Source of the DNA: a cyanobacterium endosymbiont of Epithemia turgida isolate EtSB Lake Yunoko
Lineage (GTDB): Bacteria > Cyanobacteriota > Cyanobacteriia > Cyanobacteriales > Microcystaceae
Length of the DNA stretch: 32,000 nt
Direction: 5' to 3'
Assembly (NCBI RefSeq): GCF_000829235.1
Contig: NZ_AP012549.1
Location: 2,400,001-2,432,000 of the forward strand
Under the pieces are notes generated by a model. It saw only the letters and a list, made by a program, of their open reading frames with translations. It ran no database searches and was not told the DNA's origin. This document shows, one piece after another, positions 6,041-29,450 of this stretch. Position numbers and translations under genes: made by a program. Numbering within the stretch: the stretch's first letter is position 1; the number at the start of each line of letters is the position of its first letter.

Positions 6041-8758
6041 TTAATCACTCATCATTTGTTTAACTAAGTTTTCTGCTTCTTCCTTAGTTTTAATTTTTTT
6101 ATCTAAAGAAGCAGTCAATAACCTATCTAAAATAATTTTGTATGTAGGACCTGGTTTGTAACCCATTGCTTTTAAATCATTGCCATTTAATAGAGGCTGA
6201 ATATTAGACCACTTTGTAATATATTGCCAAATTGTACGACGAATTTCTTTAGAAGAACGAACCGCTACTAAGATTAAGGTAGGCAATCTATATAAATTAA
6301 GTAATCTAGTTTTTTCACTTATTATGTTATTTTTTAAAAGCTTTTTTTTAATTTCTAACTCGACTTCTGACAATACTTTTAAGCGTATAATGCTATCTTT
6401 TGGTAATTGAAAATCAAGAGCAATTTTAATAGATTCTACTGTATCTAGTTGACTAATTAATACTTCTAAACGAAGTAACCAATGTTCTAAATTATTTTCA
6501 GGATCAAGATATTTTAACCAACGGGAAATATAGCAAGTTTGCCACCATAATATATCATCTAAAGCTAACTTAGAATGTAAACATAGTAAAGCGTCTAAAT
6601 CAGCTAATAATTTTAAAGCTTGTTTCCAATAATGAGCTTCTAAAATAGATTTTAATTCTATTTTTAATCTAGTTTTTAAGGCAGGAACTGCATAATTTTT
6701 ACTTTTTAACTGTTTATAAATGCCGCTTTTAATAGCATTGTTAATATAAGCTTTTGTTTGGGGTTCAATTTTAAATCCCAACCGCGCAGCAAAGCGTACT
6801 GCCCTATAAATTCTGGTAGGATCTTCAATAAAACTATTAGCATGAAGTACTCGAATTTGACGCAATTGTAGGTCTAACATTCCTCCAAAAAAGTCTAATA
6901 ATTCCCCTTCCCTTGGGGATGTCAACCTAACCGCTAGAGCATTAATTGTAAAATCTCTACGATATAAATCCTGATGAATAGAACTAGCTTCAACTTTGGG
7001 GTTAGCTGCAGGATAAGGATAAAATTCTGTTCTTGAAGTGGCAATATCTACCCATAAAGACCCTAATTGGGGATCTCTGTCCCATACTAAAGCAGCTGTT
7101 TGGAATTCTCCATGTACTGATAGTCTAGCATTTGGGAAAGTTTTTCGTAGGGTCGAAGCCAATTCAACCCCAGCTCCCACACCAGCGGAATGATGAAATC
7201 CATCGACGACTAGATCAATATCCTGCAGTAATAACAATTTCTCTTCTTCTGATAAAAAGAAATCTCGGACTGCCCCACCAACTATATACAAATGCCAGCC
7301 CCGTTTTTTTGCTTCTTTTGCAGCGAGTTGTAATAATTTCCATACAGGAGAAGATAAACGCTGACTAATAGAAGGTAAAAAACAAGAAACTAAGGGAATT
7401 GGGTTACTATTTTTATTTTTTTTTTCTCTTCGAGCTTGATAAATTTGCCGTAATAAATCTGTTCTGGTAACAATTCCTAATAATTTATTGTTTTCAACAA
7501 CAGGTAATCTTTCCACGTCATTAGTTACCATTATTGATTCAATTTCAGGTAGTATAGTATCAGGAGTAATAGTTTTAAAATACTGTGCCATATGTCCTTT
7601 GATTGGGGCGTGACTAAGTCCATAATGGAAGGCTAAATCAATATCTCTACGAGAAATAATGCCCACTAAGTACTCATTTTCATCTACTACTGATAATCCC
7701 GAATGGCCATAGCGAAATAAGATTTTTTGCGCTTGTTCTATAGTTGTTTCTGGGCGAATTGTTTTAACAGGAGAAGACATTAAATCTCTAGCGGTTAGAG
7801 GGTAAGGAATTTGGGCAATAAATTCTTGCAATAACTTATCTAAAGTACTTTGAGGTTCTACCTCCTGTAGCATTAAAGAACCAGCTTGTTTATGTCCTGC
7901 TCCCTCATAAGATTGAAATAATTGCTGAAGATTGGTTCCCTCAATTCTGGTGCGACCAATAATAGTTAGTAACCCCTTTTTATCAGGTTTATTGTTACGA
8001 CATTTATCATCAAAATAACCTAATAATAAGGCATCACTTTCAGTTAATTTAATTAATAGTTCAGCTAAACTAGATAACCCAGGAATATAAGTTTCTGTTT
8101 TCAATAAAACTGAAGTAATAGTGTAACCTCTAATTTCAATTTTTTGAAAATTTTCTAACGCTTTTTGCAATAATTGTTGTAGTTTTAGAGAAAACCTAGG
8201 ATCGCAATATTCATCAATAGTTTTTACATTTGCTCCTCTTTCCATTAACCAAGCTAGGGCATAGGCATCACGGGAAGTAGACTGAGAGAAAGTAAGAGAA
8301 CCCGTATCAACATGAATACCTAAGGCCATCACCGTTGCTTCGATAGGGTTAGGATGAACGCTTTCTCGTTGCATTCTTTCCACTATCAGGGTTGTAGTCG
8401 CCCCGACAGGTTCTATTTTAGTGAATGTAGAGGGAATGTCTGAATATGAATTAGTGTTGAGATGATGATCATAGATTTCAATAGTTTTGATGTGAGGTAA
8501 ATCAAACCAAGAGGACACTGTTCCTAGGCGATCACATTTTTGACTATTCACTACTATTAGAGTACGAATTTGTTTAGGATTAATGATATGCAGTTCAATT
8601 AGTGCGAATTCGTCTCGGTAAAGGGCTAAAAAATCTCTAACTGCTGGATGTGCGCCCCCGGTAAGGACAATTCGACTATCTATTTTGAGACAAGAAAGTC
8701 CTACGGCTGCCCCTAGTGCGTCAAAATCTACGTTTTGATGACATAAAATTAAATCCAT
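6041..8758 (-). CDS. DHH phosphoesterase - tandem CBS - poly(A) polymerase/tRNA nucleotidyltransferase family fusion protein
   Basis: Intact 905-aa ORF. The N-terminus is DHH-type (LCHQNVDFDALGAAVG, DHH at IEIYDHHLN). Two CBS modules sit in the middle (ARDLMSSPVKTI..., HMAQYFKTITPD...). The C-terminal half has a nucleotidyltransferase head (YIVGGAVRDFFL..DIDLVVDG, RRDFTINALA, EDPTRIYRAVRFAARLGF). This architecture is typical of the ~900-aa cyanobacterial CCA/A-adding enzyme family. Confidence 0.9.
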   Translation of the reverse strand: MDLILCHQNVDFDALGAAVGLSCLKIDSRIVLTGGAHPAVRDFLALYRDEFALIELHIINPKQIRTLIVVNSQKCDRLGTVSSWFDLPHIKTIEIYDHHLNTNSYSDIPSTFTKIEPVGATTTLIVERMQRESVHPNPIEATVMALGIHVDTGSLTFSQSTSRDAYALAWLMERGANVKTIDEYCDPRFSLKLQQLLQKALENFQKIEIRGYTITSVLLKTETYIPGLSSLAELLIKLTESDALLLGYFDDKCRNNKPDKKGLLTIIGRTRIEGTNLQQLFQSYEGAGHKQAGSLMLQEVEPQSTLDKLLQEFIAQIPYPLTARDLMSSPVKTIRPETTIEQAQKILFRYGHSGLSVVDENEYLVGIISRRDIDLAFHYGLSHAPIKGHMAQYFKTITPDTILPEIESIMVTNDVERLPVVENNKLLGIVTRTDLLRQIYQARREKKNKNSNPIPLVSCFLPSISQRLSSPVWKLLQLAAKEAKKRGWHLYIVGGAVRDFFLSEEEKLLLLQDIDLVVDGFHHSAGVGAGVELASTLRKTFPNARLSVHGEFQTAALVWDRDPQLGSLWVDIATSRTEFYPYPAANPKVEASSIHQDLYRRDFTINALAVRLTSPREGELLDFFGGMLDLQLRQIRVLHANSFIEDPTRIYRAVRFAARLGFKIEPQTKAYINNAIKSGIYKQLKSKNYAVPALKTRLKIELKSILEAHYWKQALKLLADLDALLCLHSKLALDDILWWQTCYISRWLKYLDPENNLEHWLLRLEVLISQLDTVESIKIALDFQLPKDSIIRLKVLSEVELEIKKKLLKNNIISEKTRLLNLYRLPTLILVAVRSSKEIRRTIWQYITKWSNIQPLLNGNDLKAMGYKPGPTYKIILDRLLTASLDKKIKTKEEAENLVKQMMSD

Positions 8759-16206: not shown

Positions 16207-16551
16207 ATGACAAAAGGACAAGGATTTGGATTTGGATTAGGCAAAATTAGAGAATTACAAGAAGCTTTCCAAAAAGCACAACAAGTTCAAGTTGGAGCGC
16301 AGGAACTTCAAAAACAATTGGAGGAAATGGAAATCGAGGGAGCTTGTGGGGGAGAATTGGTTAAAGTTATCATGAGTGGCAACCAAGAGCCTCTTTGCGT
16401 TGAAATTACCCCAGACGCGATGGAAAAAGGAGCCGATAGTCTTTCCCAATTAGTTACTGAGGCAATGAAAGATGCTTATGCTAAGTCTGCCGAAATGATG
16501 CGAACTAAGATGGAAGAACTTACCAGTGGTTTGAATCTTCCAGGAATGTAG
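16207..16551 (+). CDS. ybaB: YbaB/EbfC family nucleoid-associated protein
   Basis: 114-aa [56 protein letters not shown] and the size are characteristic of the YbaB family. Confidence 0.9.
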
Positions 16552-22864: not shown

Positions 22865-23053
22865 AAAATAATTATAGCTAGTTTAAAATAACTCTTATTG
22901 TTAACTTAAAGTGATTGTCGAGATACTGAAAATATCAGCATCTTAAGACTAAACTGGGAACCGTATCATAAAATTTAATCTTTTGTGTCTGAAATATTCA
23001 CCTTAGGTTAAGATAAACAGAAGTCTCTGGTATTGATAAGTCAGGGTTATTCA

Positions 23054-24814
23054 ATGCTATCTCTATTAAAGATCAAAAATTTTACCTTGGTAGACCAGCT
23101 TACCTTAAAATTTGGTCAAGGGTTAAATGTCCTTACAGGAGAAACTGGAGCAGGTAAGTCCATTATTCTTGATGCGATTGATATTGTTTTAGGTGGAAAA
23201 ATCAATCATTATTTAATTCGTCAGGGAATGCAACAAGCATCTATTGAAGCCACCTTTGAAATGGATAACACTTTACAAGTGTGGCTAGAAGAACAAGAAA
23301 TTAAACCGTTAGAAGACAAAACTCTATTGTGTTATAGAGAGCTAACCCTCACAGGGGAAACCATGCGATCACGTTCACGGATCAATGGGGTGGTAGTGAA
23401 TTTGCAACTGATGGGAAAATTGCGTGATCGCCTTGTGGAAATTACTGCTCAAGGAAAACCTGTTCAACTGGTGGACTCTATACGACAACGAGAATTACTG
23501 GACTTGTATGGAGGGATGAGTCTTCTTAAACAGCGAAAATTAGTAGAGTCAGCTTACAAAAAATGGAAAATTGCAGATAAAATACTTAAAAAATGCCGAA
23601 AATCAGAGGAAGAAAGATTACAACGCCTTGATATAGTCGAGTATGAACTGAGAGAATTAGAAGAAGCTAAATTAATCAATCCTAAAGAGCTTGAACAACT
23701 TAACCAAGAACGTGATTGCCTCTCCTATGTAGGAGAGTTACAACGGTTGAGTTACTATACCTACCAACTGCTCTATCAAAATGATACTGGAGAGTCCGCG
23801 ATCGCTGATCAGTTAGGAGAGGCTGAAAGTATCTTGACAAAGATAGCGAAATATGGCGGAGAAATAGAGTTAATTTTAGAAATGATCAGATCTGCCTTAA
23901 CTCAGGTGGTAGAAGCAGGACAGCAAATTAATGGCTATGGGGATAGATTAGAAGCTGATCCAGAGAGATTAATAGAGATAGAAGAGAGGATTAACCTGTT
24001 AAAGCGTATTTGTCGTAAATATGGTCCTTCTTTAGAAGAAGTAATCAATTATCATCAGCAATTACAGCAAGAATTAGGAGAATTAACCGACAATCAACAG
24101 TCTATTGAACAGTTGGAACAACATACTAAAGTTGCTAGAGAAACTTTTTATCAAACCTGTAAAATATTAACAGAGCTACGTCAGAAAGCGGCCATCAAAT
24201 TAGAAAAACAATTAGTTGAAGAATTAAAATCGCTGGCAATGGATAAAGTAATCTTTGTCTGTCAGATAACCACTTGTTTACCAACAGTAATGGGAAGTGA
24301 TGAAGTTATTTTTTATTTTAGTCCGAACCCTGGGGAAAAAATAAAACCTCTTTCTAGTACAGCATCCGGGGGAGAAATGAGTCGTTTTTTATTGGCCTTA
24401 AAGGCTTGTTTTGCAAAATCAGAGAAGAGCTCTCGAACCTTGATTTTCGATGAAATTGATGCAGGAGTTTCAGGAAAAGTTGCTCAGGCTATTAGCGAAA
24501 AGTTACATAAACTGAGTCGTAAATATAAAGTTTTATGTGTAACCCATCAACCTTTGGTAGCTGCAATGGCAGACAATCATTTTCGAGTTACTAAGCAAAT
24601 GATTGAAGAATATTCTAAGACTGGAAACTTAGACAATAAGCAACTGAGTTTACCCAAAATTAGGACGGTTGTTCGAGTTACTAATTTAGATGATCGACAG
24701 ACTAGACGAGAGGAATTAGCCCAATTAACAGTGGGACATTCAGAACAAGAAGCAATTGAATTTGCTCAATCATTGTTAGTTAACGCGGAAGCATATCGTT
24801 TTAAAAAGAGTTGA
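23054..24814 (+). CDS. recN: DNA repair protein RecN
   Basis: The N-terminal Walker A is (LNVLTGETGAGKSIILDAI), followed by a long coiled-coil middle. The C-terminal signature and Walker B are (ASGGEMSRFLLALK, LIFDEIDAGVSG, VLCVTHQPLVAA). I prefer the ATG at 23054 (MLSLLKIKNF...) to the TTG at 23033. Confidence 0.93.
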   Translation: MLSLLKIKNFTLVDQLTLKFGQGLNVLTGETGAGKSIILDAIDIVLGGKINHYLIRQGMQQASIEATFEMDNTLQVWLEEQEIKPLEDKTLLCYRELTLTGETMRSRSRINGVVVNLQLMGKLRDRLVEITAQGKPVQLVDSIRQRELLDLYGGMSLLKQRKLVESAYKKWKIADKILKKCRKSEEERLQRLDIVEYELRELEEAKLINPKELEQLNQERDCLSYVGELQRLSYYTYQLLYQNDTGESAIADQLGEAESILTKIAKYGGEIELILEMIRSALTQVVEAGQQINGYGDRLEADPERLIEIEERINLLKRICRKYGPSLEEVINYHQQLQQELGELTDNQQSIEQLEQHTKVARETFYQTCKILTELRQKAAIKLEKQLVEELKSLAMDKVIFVCQITTCLPTVMGSDEVIFYFSPNPGEKIKPLSSTASGGEMSRFLLALKACFAKSEKSSRTLIFDEIDAGVSGKVAQAISEKLHKLSRKYKVLCVTHQPLVAAMADNHFRVTKQMIEEYSKTGNLDNKQLSLPKIRTVVRVTNLDDRQTRREELAQLTVGHSEQEAIEFAQSLLVNAEAYRFKKS

Positions 24815-26279
24815 ACTAGCCTGTATATCATTTAAGTTAGATATTACCTAAGAAAAAAGATAGTTTTACTAAACTTAGAAAGGTTAACTGATAGCTAGGA
24901 ATACAAAACAAGGAATGGGGAACAGTAAAAATAAAAAATTAGAGAGATATTTAGATATAAATGATATTAGTGATCTTCAAGACTTAATACTTCAACAAAA
25001 AGGCGTGGATATTACTGAGAGATACAATTTAAAAACTAAAAATTTTTCAAAAACAAACTATATTGTATGGTTTACCTTTTTGGAAGAGGTATTACCTAAA
25101 TTAAAGCTAACATATCGGAAGGATACAGAAAACAATATAGGGGAGAATACATAAGATTTTTAGTTATAGTGTTAACTTAAGTTAAAGACGAGAATAATTC
25201 TTACTTTATTTAGACAGAAAAACATAATTTTATATTTCCTCGCTTTAAAAGTATTGGTTTTACCTGATAAGTTCAATAGAACTAAACAAATTAATAAAAC
25301 TATACTTCAAGACATTTACGAGTCATTTATTCTTAAGGATTACCAAAAATATTTTCTGTTTGATTTAGATGTGATTGAGTAACCATAACAATTTTCTTGA
25401 TCCTATTTTTGGCATAAAAAAACAGTATAATCTACCATTTTGGTTGCCAGTTTTATATCATTGGTGATGATGATATTCGTATATTTCTCTTTTAAATAAA
25501 CAATTAATTCTTTTACTTGATGAATATAAATTTTATAAAGAAAGAAAACAAGTTCATTGATTTAAATAAGTTCTCTTTTAACACAACCAATGTGAACAAT
25601 ATATAACTCTTGTTTTTTCTACTAAAAAAGAGAGTTTTTTACTAACATGTCTTCTAAAATATTATTAATTATTACACTATAGACAATATTTTTCTAAATC
25701 CAGGAGTCGGGCATTGACAGATAAACTTACTTAAATGCGGTCTATCTAAAAATATAAAGTAATCACTAAAAACTAAAAAGTAAAAAACCATTATAACTTT
25801 TACTAATAAATCAATGGCTAAGTAATATTAAAATTTTTATACTTGGTATCCGATTGTTGAATCTTAATATTTAGGATGTAATAGTTTACCCGAGATATTT
25901 AATAATTTATCTCATGATCAAGAGTTATATTTAATGATAGTAATAGTTAAAACTTGATAAGTCTCAATCAAAGAAGTAGAATATTATTCGTTTAAAAGTT
26001 TAGAGATAATCGAGTAATTTTTAGTTACTGTAACTATACGATGCTCACTTTATCTATCCTAAGCTAGTCAATACATATTTTACGTAATTTATTTTTTAAA
26101 TGCGCATTTCTCAAATCTATTTAAATCTCCTAAATCAGAAAAATAATAATTAAGTTTAAAAATATAAGATATCAGTAAAGTCATCACAAACAATTCTATT
26201 GTAACTTTCCATCTACACTCATAATCAAACATTATATTCACAATATATAGACTAAAAAAATAGATAAAAATTTAAAATC

Positions 26280-27770
26280 TTTACTTCATCTATCCTATTC
26301 TAAGTTGTATTTTTATCAGCTCAAATTCAGTAAAATTTATACCTCTAATGTAGAAGCATGACGCACTTTCCCAGAAGAGAATAAAATCTCCCCTAAACTG
26401 CTCAAATAATCGTCAATTATTTGGGCAGTACTAGAGCCGATAAAGAGCGTCCTTACATGACGTATTTTTTAAATAAAATTTTAAGATTTAGCCAAAGCTA
26501 ATATTAAAGTACTGTGAAAAGAATTGATTGATAATGGACACGGCTTGTTCTAAAGAATCCACTACAACAATTAATCGATCGTAAGAGATCATCTTTGCAC
26601 TGAGAACTCCTGAGAAATATTCATCAGATTTATAAATGACTATCTTCTGTAGCATTGTGCCTCAAGTCACATCAGGAGTCAACAAAATCACTACGTTTGT
26701 GGACTCTTGTTCTATTTATACGAATAGAGTGCCCCAATATAGTTGAGGTTAGCCTTGCGCTCAGCAATGATTACTAAGTCAGAAATATCAAAAGATGTAC
26801 CAATAGCTACCGCTCCATAAACTGTTTTTTCGCCAACGTAACTTCGAGATCTCCTATTCCTGTAATGACTTCTACTCTTGGGAAAGTTTTAGTTCCGTAG
26901 GATAAAATGACAATAGCTGCTGTTTTTGCCAACCCTGTAAATTCTCTTGATTCCTATTTCTTGAGTGAGCGGCTGCCAAAATTAAGGGATAAATTTTTTC
27001 AAAAATATTAGGGGAAGTTATCACTATAGTTAGAAAACCTTGGCGACTTTTGCGAGGATGGCTTGAGTCAAAAACCCACTGATTTGAGGACATAAATCAC
27101 TCTCAATATAAGGTTCGGCTCCTTTAAAATGCTGGAACAACTCAAATTCTTGAGACTAGTTTTAATTGATGAAACTGGAGTTAAGCTAGCCATAACTTGT
27201 AATTTTACTAAAGCAACTAAGGGAAAATACGTTTATAAGGAATATATCAGTAGAGGAAGAAATATTGTCTGAAATTGGGACGATCACTACGTCGGTTTTT
27301 TGAATCCTTTTACTTTTTAAAAATAGATAAATCTAAAAAAATTTTTTGCACTGATAAAATAGAAGTTCTAATATGATTAAATATAGCCGGTGACTGTTGT
27401 AGTTATAGTTAAGTTGTTAACTCGTAAAACAACAACAAAAGTTGGGGAACTGATGGAATCTATAGAAGCAAAAGTCGTGTTCCTATTTCCTCAGTAGCTA
27501 TTAGTCATAAATTAGAAAACATTAACAAATTAAATGATCCTCTAACTCTAGAGTCCTTAATCAAACTCTCAATAAATCAATTGATTGAGCAACTGATGAA
27601 TACATAATTTACCAGTGTATCCACTTCTGCTATTACCAAGTTACCCAGTTAGAAACCGCTATAAAAACCAAAATCTGCATCGCTTTACCGCCGGTTCCGA
27701 CGAGTAAAAATAGCCGAACCAACTCTCACTCCAAAGCTTTGTCTGTTTCTTTAGTTCATTTTTCTGCTTG
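26280..27770 (-). pseudogene. hisD: Histidinol dehydrogenase relic, near full length, multiply frameshifted and split by an IS remnant
   Basis: Minus-strand fragments lie in different frames. Each is listed with the HisD segment it matches: (1) FKGAEPYIESDLCPQISGFLTQAILAKVAKVF, cf. LYVPGG.AAYPSSVLMNAIPAKVAGV. (2) PLILAAAHSRNRNQ and GLAKTAAIVILSYGTKTFPRVEVITGIGDLEVTLAKK, cf. GGAQAIAALAYGTETIPKVD.I.GPGNIYVTLAKK. (3) VYGAVAIGTSFDISDLVIIAERKAN, cf. V.G.VGID..AGPSEVL.IADE.AN. (4) RLIVVVDSLEQAVSIINQF, cf. .I.VDSLEEA.ELSN. (5) TLFIGSSTAQIIDDYLSSLGEILFSSGKVRHAS, cf. AIFLG..TPEA.GDY.AGPNH.LPTSG.AR..S. N-terminal traces (YTGKL cf. YT.KFD, RFHQ cf. AFH.Q) lie at 27400-27700. One frameshift coincides with a T6 run at 26825-26830. 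The ORF-track entry 26872..27093 is one frame of this relic. Confidence 0.85.
27128..27385 (+). mobile_element. Degraded IS630-family (DDE) transposase fragment inserted in hisD
   Basis: Plus-strand fragments: MLEQLKFLRLVLIDETGVKLAITCNFTKATKGKYVYKEYISRGRNI, then after a frameshift LSEIGTITTSVF, then FESFYFLK...KIEVLI*LN. These follow the IS630 pattern ..lvFiDEsG.n..m.r.ygra.kG.r......rg.n.tligal...G...F..fl......vlvmDN. Only about 85 of ~340 codons remain and no terminal repeats are recognisable. Confidence 0.6.
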
Positions 27771-27821
27771 ACTCCCGATGCTTTTTCAATAAAGATACCA
27801 TAACAATGGTACCACTTAACT

Positions 27822-29450
27822 TCATATGGTTACTGTATCCTCTATCGAATTTTCTAAAAGTAAACCATATTCAATTCCTTCGACAACTGCTTCATAGGAG
27901 GCTTCCAAAATATTGGGAGAAACTCCGACGGTACTCCAACGTTCTTTGCCATTACTAGACTCAACTAAAACTCTTGTTTTAGAAGATGTTCCTGATTCTC
28001 CATCCAGAATCCTAACCTTATAATCCGTTAGATGAAACTCTGCAACTGCCGGATAGAAATTTTCTAAAGCTTTCCGTAAGGCACTATCTAGGGCGGCAAC
28101 GGGACCATTTCCTTCGGCTACCTCCAATCTATCTTCTCCATTAACTGTAACTTTAATAGTTGCTAAAGCATTACTGTAAGATATTTCTTGTCCTCGTAAC
28201 ATATCACAATGTACTTGAAATCCTTTAAGTTGAAACATAGGTTTTCGTTGTCCCAATGCTTGACGCATTAAAAGTTCGAAACTAGATTCGGCTGCTTCAA
28301 ATTGATATCCTTCATATTCTAACTTTTTAATCCGTTCTAAAATGTCATGACAAGCAATATCTTCTTTTTTTAACTCAAGTCCAAAGGTTTTTGCTTTCGA
28401 TAAAACATTACTTAATCCTGACTGATCAGAAATGACAATACGCCGTTTATTGCCAATTTTTTCAGGTTTAATGTGTTCGTAGGTTAGGGGATTTTTTTGA
28501 ACAGCCGAAACATGAATTCCTCCCTTATGAGCAAAGGCAGAACGCCCTACAAAAGGAGCATAATCATCCGGTGCTAAATTAACAATTTCACTAATGAAAC
28601 GGCTAGTTTTACTTAATTGCGTTATTTGAGTATCTGTTAAACAAGAATACCCCATTTTAAACTGTAAATTTGGAATTAAGGTACATAAATTAGCATTACC
28701 GCACCTTTCCCCATACCCATTGATTGTTCCATGAATCATTCTCACCCCTTCTACCACCCCAGCTAACCCATTCGCTACTGCAGTTCCTGAGTCATTATGA
28801 GTGTGAATTCCTAATTTAGGAAAGGTTTCTCTATCAGGAGCTACATCTAACTCTTCTACCACTTCTTTAACAATTTTACTAACTTCCTGAGGCAAAGTTC
28901 CACCATTAGTATCACATAATACTAACCAAATAGCCCCGGCATTTTTAGCAGCTTTTAGGGTTTGTAAAGCATAATCAGGATTTTGCTTATAGCCATCAAA
29001 CCAATGTTCTGCATCGTAAATTATTTGTCTTCCCTGACTGCGGAGATATTCAATCGTATCTCTTATCATGGCTAAATTTTCTTCCAAGGTGGTTTTCAAC
29101 CCCTCAGTGACGTGGAGATCCCAAGACTTGCCAAAGATAGTTACCCAACGAGTTCCGGCGGCTAAAATCATCTGTAACATTCGATCACGATCTGAGGGAA
29201 TATACGGGCGACGAGTGGAACAAAAAGCCACGACTTCGGCCTGATTTAAAGGTTCTTCCTGTAACTTCCAGAAAAACTGGACATCTTTCGGATTAGCCCC
29301 TGGCCATCCTCCCTCAATAAAAGGAATTCCTAGCTTATCGAGTTGGTGGGCAATTTTCAGCTTGTCCTCCAGAGACAGAGCAATTCCCTCCCGTTGTGCC
29401 CCATCTCTTAGGGTGGTGTCATAAAGCAAAACTTGATTGGCCATACCCAT
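27822..29450 (-). CDS. cimA: (R)-citramalate synthase (LeuA-related, isoleucine pathway)
   Basis: 542-aa ORF. LYDTTLRDGAQREGIALSLEDKLKIAHQLDKLGIPFIEGGWPGANPKD (DGAQ rather than the DGEQ of LeuA), HTHNDSGTAVAN and the C-terminal LeuA-dimerisation-type regulatory domain fit the cyanobacterial CimA subgroup. 2-isopropylmalate synthase cannot be fully excluded. Confidence 0.85.
   Translation of the reverse strand: MGMANQVLLYDTTLRDGAQREGIALSLEDKLKIAHQLDKLGIPFIEGGWPGANPKDVQFFWKLQEEPLNQAEVVAFCSTRRPYIPSDRDRMLQMILAAGTRWVTIFGKSWDLHVTEGLKTTLEENLAMIRDTIEYLRSQGRQIIYDAEHWFDGYKQNPDYALQTLKAAKNAGAIWLVLCDTNGGTLPQEVSKIVKEVVEELDVAPDRETFPKLGIHTHNDSGTAVANGLAGVVEGVRMIHGTINGYGERCGNANLCTLIPNLQFKMGYSCLTDTQITQLSKTSRFISEIVNLAPDDYAPFVGRSAFAHKGGIHVSAVQKNPLTYEHIKPEKIGNKRRIVISDQSGLSNVLSKAKTFGLELKKEDIACHDILERIKKLEYEGYQFEAAESSFELLMRQALGQRKPMFQLKGFQVHCDMLRGQEISYSNALATIKVTVNGEDRLEVAEGNGPVAALDSALRKALENFYPAVAEFHLTDYKVRILDGESGTSSKTRVLVESSNGKERWSTVGVSPNILEASYEAVVEGIEYGLLLENSIEDTVTI

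Follow-up and report, generated by a model that had tools for sequence, protein, structure and literature searches.

Probable remnant of a degenerate histidinol dehydrogenase paralog beside an IS630-family relic in a spheroid-body endosymbiont genome

The window, a stretch of 32,000 nucleotides from the nitrogen-fixing cyanobacterial spheroid-body endosymbiont of the Rhopalodiaceae diatom Epithemia turgida, contains a decayed, 5'-truncated, non-functional remnant of a second HisD-like gene on the minus strand (26340..27137). Beside it, on the plus strand, lies the relic of an IS630-family transposase (27156..27636). We read this locus as debris of reductive genome evolution, in which a dead copy of a degenerate HisD paralog sits next to a dead insertion sequence and the histidine pathway is intact (probability about 0.85). 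A sequence-only reading had taken the remnant for the pathway gene hisD itself, inactivated by the insertion comparatively recently.

The HisD-family similarity on the minus strand, which that reading had recognized correctly, is real and far above chance. The Pfam family Histidinol_dh (PF00815) matches two frames of the relic (E 1.3e-6 and 2e-4), and the stitched translation retrieves HisD proteins with a best E value of 1.6e-42 in a search of 5.8 billion sequences. Frameshift-aware alignment was done against a reference set of eight paralogs and eight canonical HisD proteins. In this alignment the relic (GC 0.367) corresponds to residues ~117-381 of ~430, with its coding sequence scattered across three frames, as had been noted. 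There are six frame-shifting indels (near 27034, 26967-26964, 26924, 26823, 26728, and 26508) and four in-frame stops (26718-26716, 26664-26662, 26483-26481, and 26471-26469), and both termini are undetectable, so that there is no intact ORF. The N-terminal 125 residues of HisD scored z ~0 against shuffles in 27115-27640 and in 27630-27840, and no HisD N-terminus rose above shuffles on either side of the IS relic or elsewhere in the window. The C-terminal ~50 residues were undetectable by alignment. Segments covering almost the entire protein had been claimed, and this does not extend beyond residues ~117-381. A match to the C-terminus of the paralog P0053 at 16396-16515 was rejected as chance; it sits within an intact 114-aa ORF (16207-16551), which we take to be a ybaB-like gene.

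The plus-strand transposase remnant, also called from the letters, is an IS630-family relic of ~480 bp (GC 0.299) that was located by frameshift-aware alignment, tblastn, and DDE_3/NF033545 matches. It retains the complete DDE_3 domain region, corresponding to positions 145-293 of 299 in the NF033545 model, and has at least five frameshifts and one stop. Its alignment to an IS630 transposase of Nostoc flagelliforme (WP_100902788 type) scored 141.5, against 41.9 +/- 7.2 for shuffles (z ~14). By tblastn, the relic matches a Gloeocapsopsis transposase (E 1e-3) that itself hits DDE_3 at 6.5e-14 and NF033545 at 1e-10. The frameshift-corrected composite matches DDE_3 with an E value of 5.6e-9 (36.4 bits, above the 28.6 cutoff) and NF033545 with 4.4e-4, below the 100-bit cutoff. 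Among the scans with the Nostoc protein or the family models, only frameshift-aware alignment and the corrected composite saw the relic: raw or hand-stitched frames of the region gave nothing in Pfam or NCBIfam scans, and the Nostoc IS630 protein had no match in the window by plain tblastn. The DDE_3 domain is thus recognizable at full length as in cyanobacterial IS630-family elements, but unlike them the relic is pseudogenized, non-mobile, and without the N-terminal HTH half. It begins at model position ~145, and the DNA upstream of that point is the HisD-like relic.

The two 5'-truncated relics meet in a junction zone at 27138..27155, where one alignment ends and the other starts and the exact breakpoint is not resolvable. 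At this junction, the IS has lost its 5' half and the gene its first ~116 codons. The insertion had been described as lying between two HisD segments, '..GLYV' and 'PGG..AYPS'. The '..GLYV' side falls inside the transposase relic, which abuts the truncated gene, and no HisD signal was found beyond the transposase relic. Where 'PGG..AYPS' was claimed, the relic reads YIESDLCPQIS, a paralog-type motif.

It is possible, though less likely than not, that the IS630 element was the direct cause of the loss of this same paralog: it would have landed inside the coding sequence around codon ~117-126, after which separate deletions took away the upstream half of the gene and the 5' half of the IS. HisD-like similarity does start ~20-45 nt from the start of the transposase relic. 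In addition, a 27-nt imperfect inverted repeat, 70% complementary (27112-27138 / 27694-27720), brackets the transposase relic and could pass for its terminal repeats; it is the sole such candidate. Its right arm lacks conservation among the sister genomes, and the perfect 9-mer at its core seems to have arisen in the lineage of the window, and therefore the repeat is probably due to chance; neither terminal repeats nor a TA target duplication could be demonstrated for the relic. The absence of an N-terminal HisD signal from the far side of the IS also argues against direct causation, as does the spacer there (27637..27821): the 185 nt from the transposase C-terminus to the cimA stop codon are too short for 116 codons. 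The spacer shows conservation in the spheroid bodies of both R. gibba and R. gibberula. HisD N-terminal alignments to it were no better than shuffles, and it is presumably the 3' end of the IS plus old intergenic DNA.

The gene beyond the spacer in the ORF list is an intact cimA (citramalate synthase, 542 aa; 27822..29450, minus strand), whose product is 93-95% identical in amino acid sequence to those of three spheroid-body genomes and 87% identical to that of free-living SU2. The HisD-like relic is indeed downstream of cimA, with the transposase relic and the spacer between the two. On the other side, blastn, alignment, and composition identified no gene remnant in the AT-rich non-coding stretch between recN and the relic (24815..26339, GC 0.241). 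Part of this stretch (25232-26194) is ~75% identical to EcSB and RgSB and is deleted in the R. gibba spheroid body. No Rfam family and no tRNA was found in 24500-28000.

A further alternative is that the IS marks a rearrangement breakpoint, at which IS-mediated recombination brought the cimA locus together with a remote paralog locus that was already truncated, so that the two genes were never neighbors in the free-living ancestor. A HisD-like neighbor of cimA was found at none of 80 cyanobacterial loci, SU2 included, and no neighbors of the paralog in PCC 8801 or SU2 were detectable in the window. The window likewise shares no neighbors with the cimA neighborhood of SU2, and an SU2 gene 4.5 kb from cimA sits 20 kb away in the window. 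These observations would fit a breakpoint. However, gene order around the paralog differs among PCC 8801, SU2, and UBA12306, which makes the missing synteny uninformative, and no second copy of the breakpoint was identified. We therefore regard this alternative as rather doubtful. As no synteny is shared with the paralog loci of PCC 8801 or SU2, the orthology of the relic rests on sequence comparison.

The comparison indicates that the relic derives from the catalytically degenerate paralog (Cyan8802-3453 / PCC 8801 P0052 / SU2 P0053) and not from the pathway hisD. P0052 is the ortholog of Cyan8802-3453, since its gene order in PCC 8801 matches the PCC 8802 tags 3465, 3464, 3458, 3453, 3448, 3447, and 3446. 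Every one of the eight paralogs (alignment scores 433-540, 45-53% identity) outscores every one of the eight canonical HisD proteins (352-395) against the relic. The best match is SU2 P0053 (score 540, 53% identity), and SU2 is also the closest free-living relative by cimA. Diagnostic columns were defined as those conserved within the paralog clade and within the canonical clade but differing between them; of these 25 columns, the relic has the paralog state in 15, another state in 10, and the canonical state in none. The paralog-type genes, which comprise a second 'hisD' in Rippkaea orientalis (Cyan8802-3453; P0052 in PCC 8801) and the orthologous genes of SU2, Aphanothece sacrum, Crocosphaera UHCC 0190, and Cyanothece UBA12306, are 45-53% identical to the relic and have the clade motifs GxGDLEV, SDLxIIA, EQ(D/E), QYL, and YLxSxGxIL in common with it. 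They are intact and under purifying selection, whereas the relic is truncated and dead.

The parent paralog belongs to the same fold family as canonical HisD (EC 1.1.1.23; PF00815, TIGR00069; E. coli 1K75, Brucella 4G07) and can be aligned over its full length to HisD proteins of solved structure (E 9e-74). The residues of the active site are different. At the position of the catalytic pair, the relic reads ..FSQY.. against ..APEH.. in canonical HisD, and the intact paralogs have PQY or PEY; Q-Y thus replaces E-H in the relic and its intact orthologs. We also looked at the zinc ligands, namely the Gln and His of QAEHD, the Asp of GDY, and the C-terminal His of the partner subunit. Both the relic (IEQES) and all eight paralogs (QVEQD or QAEQD) have Q in place of the QAEHD His, while the Asp of GDY is kept. 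The C-terminal His is changed to N, S, or T in the paralogs (N or S in the intact orthologs of the relic), and this segment is gone from the relic. The PGG..YPS and GPGN motifs are altered in the relic and its orthologs, and GPNHTLPT lacks its N-H. The paralog has no equivalents of EcHisD His262, Glu326, His327, His367, and His419; for His367 we presume a functional role. The roles of Glu326 and His327 have been described (PMC11382572), and His262 and His419 would be zinc ligands by their equivalence to the zinc ligands of CpHpsN in the same study. The relic therefore retains homology to PF00815 / TIGR00069 without the catalytic pair or the full set of zinc ligands. It has the residues specific to the paralog clade and is closest to the SU2 paralog, and it is not orthologous to the single-copy pathway gene (slr1848 / Cyan8802-0200). 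Frameshift mapping with HisD queries, which had been suggested as a check, thus upheld the similarity but not the pathway identity.

On this reading histidine biosynthesis is unaffected, and for the window's own genome the presence of a canonical hisD is deduced from published tables, which cover six genomes that are its sisters or identical to it. These tables give each of the six sequenced spheroid-body genomes an intact canonical hisD of 434 aa (ETSB-1313, KPI85-01265, JJP05-01315, RGRSB-1702, P3F56-06620, and OXU93-01710), every one an ortholog of Cyan8802-0200, and these genomes were judged complete for all 20 amino acid pathways (PMC12903740). The auxotrophy that had been predicted from the locus fails because of these genes; an intact second hisD elsewhere had been named as the finding that would overturn it. 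We see no evidence here that the endosymbiont depends on its diatom host for histidine, in agreement with the published view that spheroid bodies retain every amino acid pathway. It is accordingly very improbable that the pathway hisD was knocked out by IS630 fairly recently, leaving a need for host histidine: the HisD-family homology is real, the transposase relic abuts the HisD-like relic, and annotation models do name the parent gene 'histidinol dehydrogenase', but against this stand the lack of any canonical state at the 25 diagnostic columns, catalytic positions reading Q-Y as in the intact paralogs, the intact hisD tabulated in six spheroid-body genomes, and an IS relic common to the sisters, which makes the event ancient. 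The comparative tables of PMC12903740 have no entry for the relic at 26340-27137; in them, Cyan8802-3453 is scored '--' (absent) for every endosymbiont and is not bracketed as a pseudogene. We also considered whether the 434-aa hisD that spheroid bodies keep could be a member of a 434-aa degenerate group, 'RILDFGF'. When this group was used in a profile search, only a small metagenomic clade came up, with no Crocosphaera or spheroid-body proteins, and this candidate was rejected.

The pseudogene is old rather than comparatively young. Three sister spheroid-body genomes have the 3' part of the IS relic in the identical position, and thus the event is ancient. The HisD-like body is deleted in each of these sisters with different endpoints (25063-27430, 26195-27211, and 26144-27509 in window coordinates). 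The sister comparison that had been proposed thus finds the IS relic shared and the HisD-like body missing from each sister. On codons picked by amino acid-guided alignment, with third positions saturated, the relic branch has 0.35/0.20/0.46 substitutions per site at codon positions 1/2/3. By comparison, third positions of cimA have 0.30 along the entire lineage, and pairwise values inside the spheroid-body crown are 0.11-0.17.

Our preferred reading, a dead degenerate paralog beside an IS relic, suggests the following history, in which the order of IS insertion, truncating deletion, and loss of constraint is deduced. The free-living ancestor would have carried two HisD-family genes. One was probably the canonical HisD (Cyan8802-0200 / slr1848 type), retained intact elsewhere in the spheroid-body genomes, and the other a diverged paralog (Cyan8802-3453 / P0052 / P0053 type) without the catalytic Glu-His pair and two zinc-binding His residues. 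By the time of the last ancestor shared by the spheroid bodies sampled, an element of the IS630 family would already have been located between cimA and the paralog. A deletion at the junction would have removed the 5' half of the IS together with the first ~116 codons of the paralog. The remaining ~800 bp would then have drifted neutrally, gaining frameshifts and stops and falling in GC from ~0.46 to 0.37, and the three sister lineages would later have deleted the body of the relic, while the window lineage still has it. The locus would thus illustrate reductive evolution: one lineage still keeps an ancient IS and pseudogene pair that three independent deletions have cut back in its sisters. 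For EtSB and RgSB, 225-286 pseudogenes have been counted, together with 18-22 IS elements whose transposase ORFs are all either truncated or in fragments (Nakayama & Inagaki 2017, PMC5638926), and the relic, with its frameshifts, stops, AT drift, and lineage-specific deletion, is the same kind of object.

In free-living relatives, the paralog is a functional gene under purifying selection (dN/dS 0.12-0.17). The clade of the parent gene, comprising the P0052/P0053 type and the Pannus, Gloeothece PCC 7424, and 'RILDFGF' groups, is undescribed as far as we could find. It has lost the catalytic and zinc-binding residues of HisD, yet it is under purifying selection. We propose tentatively, at somewhat less than even odds, that its members are either pseudoenzymes, such as partners for canonical HisD, itself an obligate dimer, or enzymes with a new chemistry. 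If so, the loss of the gene from every spheroid body would mean that its function is needed only in free-living life. Degenerate HisD-like proteins of this kind are routinely annotated as hisD. The intact paralogs score 378-382 bits on TIGR00069, against a cutoff of 243.8, and both TIGR00069 and Pfam name them histidinol dehydrogenase; therefore, reconstructions of metabolism from gene presence in cyanobacteria can miscount hisD copies. Cyan8802-3453 is described as 'present in all cb' in a supplementary note of PMC12903740, which conflicts with the narrow distribution seen here.

HisD-like peptides were found on the minus strand of the window by six-frame translation. Two of the three minus frames matched Pfam Histidinol_dh (E 1.3e-6, profile 312-368; E 2e-4, profile 174-208), and the stitched translation of the relic matched only histidinol-dehydrogenase-family proteins among 5.8 billion sequences searched (best E 1.6e-42). 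Frameshifts were mapped with HisD queries, as the sequence-only reading had proposed, using a purpose-written frameshift-aware protein-to-DNA aligner and judging scores against those of shuffled proteins. This located four in-frame stops and six frame-shifting indels, but significant similarity was limited to 26340-27137 (minus strand; residues ~117-381 of ~430). The N-terminal 125 residues of HisD scored at shuffle level in both 27115-27640 and 27630-27840, the C-terminal ~50 residues were not detectable below 26340, and neither missing part was found in the rest of the window. Thus, the sequence-only reading was right about a HisD-family pseudogene with frameshifts and stops but wrong about its near-full length. 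The segment taken for PGG..AYPS is actually YIESDLCPQIS, and the supposed HisD N-terminus (..GLYV and upstream) falls within a transposase relic.

Because the best matches of the stitched translation had odd active-site motifs, a profile search was carried out, and it recovered a clade of eight HisD-like paralogs: P0052 (Rippkaea orientalis PCC 8801), P0053 (the free-living relative SU2), P0054 (Aphanothece sacrum), P0103 (Crocosphaera UHCC 0190), P0001 (Cyanothece UBA12306), P0002, P0056, and P0066. When these were aligned to solved HisD structures and canonical cyanobacterial HisD, the canonical motifs YVPGGRASYPS, GPGNIYV, GPSEV, QAEHD, APEHLEL, GPNHTLPT, and the C-terminal SHAD corresponded to YVAGD..S.IS, GTGDLEV, SSDL, QVEQD, APQYLML, SSGVILPP, and S/A-N/S-A/T-E (e.g. 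ANTE, ASAE) in the paralogs. In this alignment the paralogs have no equivalents of EcHisD His262, Glu326, His327, His367 (which we take to have a functional role), and His419. In HisD, His327 is the general base and Glu326 the water-activating base, and in a close homolog zinc is bound by Gln, His, Asp, and a His of the partner subunit (PMC11382572); His262 and His419 are probably the equivalents of these ligand histidines. The dN/dS of the paralogs was 0.12-0.17 (PCC 8801, SU2, and UBA12306 compared), and they are under purifying selection despite the lost active-site residues.

The relic scored higher with every one of the eight paralogs (433-540, 45-53% identity, best with SU2 P0053) than with any of eight canonical HisD proteins (352-395, 40-43% identity). 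At 25 diagnostic columns, conserved in at least 7/8 sequences within each clade and differing between the clades, it has the paralog residue in 15, the canonical residue in none, and another residue in 10. The 15 include the active-site His-to-Gln, Glu-to-Gln, and His-to-Tyr positions. The relic is thus most probably a descendant of a P0052/P0053-type paralog; the sequence-only reading had the family correct, but its assignment to the pathway gene, and the physiological meaning drawn from it, were wrong.

According to PMC12903740, the genomes of rhopalodiacean endosymbionts point to complete biosynthesis of all 20 amino acids, and its supplementary tables give two hisD genes, Cyan8802-0200 and Cyan8802-3453, for Rippkaea PCC 8802. 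Cyan8802-0200 (434 aa) is orthologous to Synechocystis slr1848, and each of the six spheroid-body genomes has an intact ortholog of 434 aa (ETSB-1313, KPI85-01265, JJP05-01315, RGRSB-1702, P3F56-06620, OXU93-01710), while Cyan8802-3453 is tabulated as absent in all endosymbionts (PMC12903740). According to the tables of these six genomes, the pathway hisD is retained in spheroid bodies, and the histidine auxotrophy once predicted from the pseudogene is contradicted by this intact second hisD. In PCC 8801, P0052 lies in the order FGGY kinase, NUDIX, AAA ATPase, HisD-like gene, two GGDEF-EAL proteins, and ParA-like protein, with other genes between some of them. This matches PCC 8802 gene for gene (3465 ribulokinase, 3464 NUDIX, 3458 AAA, 3453 hisD, 3448 and 3447 GGDEF-EAL, 3446 ParA), and P0052 and Cyan8802-3453 are therefore orthologs. 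The relic is most probably the remnant of this copy, already known as lost from the endosymbionts. In supplementary file 3 of PMC12903740, Cyan8802-0200 is marked 'Found rarely in cb but in all Cyanothece' and Cyan8802-3453 'Present in all cb'. By sequence, rarity and degeneration belong to the 3453 type, and the two remarks look swapped.

The plus-strand transposase fragment noticed earlier is indeed an IS630-family remnant, but it is far larger than described. The first lead came from tblastn against plasmids (7.3 Gb), where a Gloeocapsopsis transposase fragment was matched at E 1e-3; this fragment has E values of 6.5e-14 with DDE_3 and 1e-10 with NF033545 (IS630 family). Positions ~27156-27636 cover residues ~30-196 of the DDE part (200 aa) in the alignment with an IS630-family transposase of Nostoc flagelliforme (score 141.5; shuffles 41.9 +/- 7.2). 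Plain tblastn failed to detect the relic, and family scans of the raw frames gave no match. As an independent check, a frameshift-corrected composite of window 27132-27440 and the better-preserved syntenic copy from the Rhopalodia gibba spheroid body matched Pfam DDE_3 (E 5.6e-9, 36.4 bits, cutoff 28.6, profile 1-142 of 146) and NF033545 (4.4e-4, positions 145-293 of 299), so the IS relic keeps the entire DDE domain without the HTH half. A 27-nt inverted repeat flanks it (27112-27138 / 27694-27720), with 70% complementarity and a perfect GGTTCGGCT/AGCCGAACC core. The sister genomes lack this core and differ at several positions, so the repeat is probably coincidental. A second, likewise pseudogenised copy of the same transposase type lies at the locus edge in the R. 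gibba spheroid body (L001 13415-13622, ~5.8 kb from cimA), with 72% DNA and 47% protein identity to window 27173-27331. SU2 encodes a 201-aa DDE_3 transposase ~9 kb from its paralog (L087 160-765), which belongs to another subgroup and has no similarity to the window relic.

The pseudogene had also been considered comparatively young, and a comparison with sister strains had been suggested. The HisD-like body is missing from all three sister genomes, but the 3' part of the IS relic is present at the same site downstream of cimA in all of them (blastn and alignments), so the IS is older than their divergence. The deletion endpoints all differ: window 25063-27430 with a clean junction in R. gibba, 26195-27211 in R. 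gibberula (RgSB), and 26144-27509 in Epithemia clementina (EcSB). As the flanks on both sides are common to the sisters, the relic is ancestral and its absence derived. In a three-taxon comparison of the relic, SU2, and PCC 8801, Jukes-Cantor (JC) distances at codon positions 1/2/3 were 0.35/0.20/0.46 on the relic branch and 0.02/0.04/0.29 on the SU2 paralog branch. For cimA they were 0.06/0.04/0.30 on the window lineage, and third-position distances among spheroid bodies were 0.11-0.17 pairwise. By rough estimate, the relic would have been free of constraint for well over half the interval since the SU2 split, which exceeds the depth of the spheroid-body crown, and its proposed youth cannot be maintained. 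The GC content of the relic is 0.367, compared with 0.457-0.470 in the matching segment of intact orthologs (cimA: window 0.394, SU2 0.409); its moderate GC matches the expected outcome of ~0.3 neutral substitutions per site and is no sign of youth.

In this reductive genome, the locus is an ordinary old pseudogene accompanied by a dead IS. The 5'-truncated paralog relic adjoins the 5'-truncated transposase relic, and a single deletion may have taken away the 5' parts of both. The IS could have inserted within the paralog coding sequence, could have been located upstream of it, or could mark a rearrangement breakpoint, and the arrangement is compatible with all three.

Three more cyanobacterial HisD-like groups have partly degenerate catalytic motifs, e.g. 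AQAEQ(D/Y), APQYLAL, APSHLEL, and AQAERTP: the Pannus type (P0023/P0025/P0026), the Gloeothece PCC 7424 group (P0080), and the RILDFGF group, named after its C-terminus (P0073/P0091/P0108/P0137/P0156/P0163/P0164, 434 aa). In a neighbour-joining tree they and the P0052-type paralogs make up one clade next to canonical HisD, a clustering that suggests a single old duplication, after which active-site residues were lost step by step. P0052-type paralogs score 378-382 bits with the TIGR00069 'hisD' model (canonical protein 564), and P0052, P0053, P0137, and P0023 score 366-466 bits with this equivalog model. All pass the cutoff of 243.8, which explains their annotation as hisD or histidinol dehydrogenase. 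We found no description of these paralogs in the literature; selection maintains them in free-living members of Chroococcales and Pleurocapsales, and they are a side observation of some interest.

The intact cimA (citramalate synthase, 542 aa; 27822-29450, minus strand) encodes a protein with 95%, 93%, and 94% identity to those of the R. gibba, E. clementina, and R. gibberula spheroid bodies, and 87% to that of SU2, a free-living unicellular cyanobacterium. The window therefore belongs to a spheroid-body genome distinct from these three, probably of the E. turgida/adnata lineage. None of 80 cyanobacterial loci has a HisD-like gene beside cimA, and no RNA family or tRNA was found in 24500-28000. 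Between recN (23033-24814, plus strand) and the relic, 24815-26339 is very AT-rich (GC 0.24) without an identifiable gene remnant. Its part 25232-26194 is conserved at ~75% in EcSB and RgSB and missing in the R. gibba spheroid body, whose recN and cimA genes are just ~650 bp apart. In SU2, cimA is followed by a 327-aa ORF and an RNase R-like gene, neither of which occurs in the window. The gene at window 7310-8758 (SU2 locus L004, 1-1452) is ~4.5 kb from cimA in SU2 and ~20 kb in the window. The cimA neighbourhood has been rearranged.
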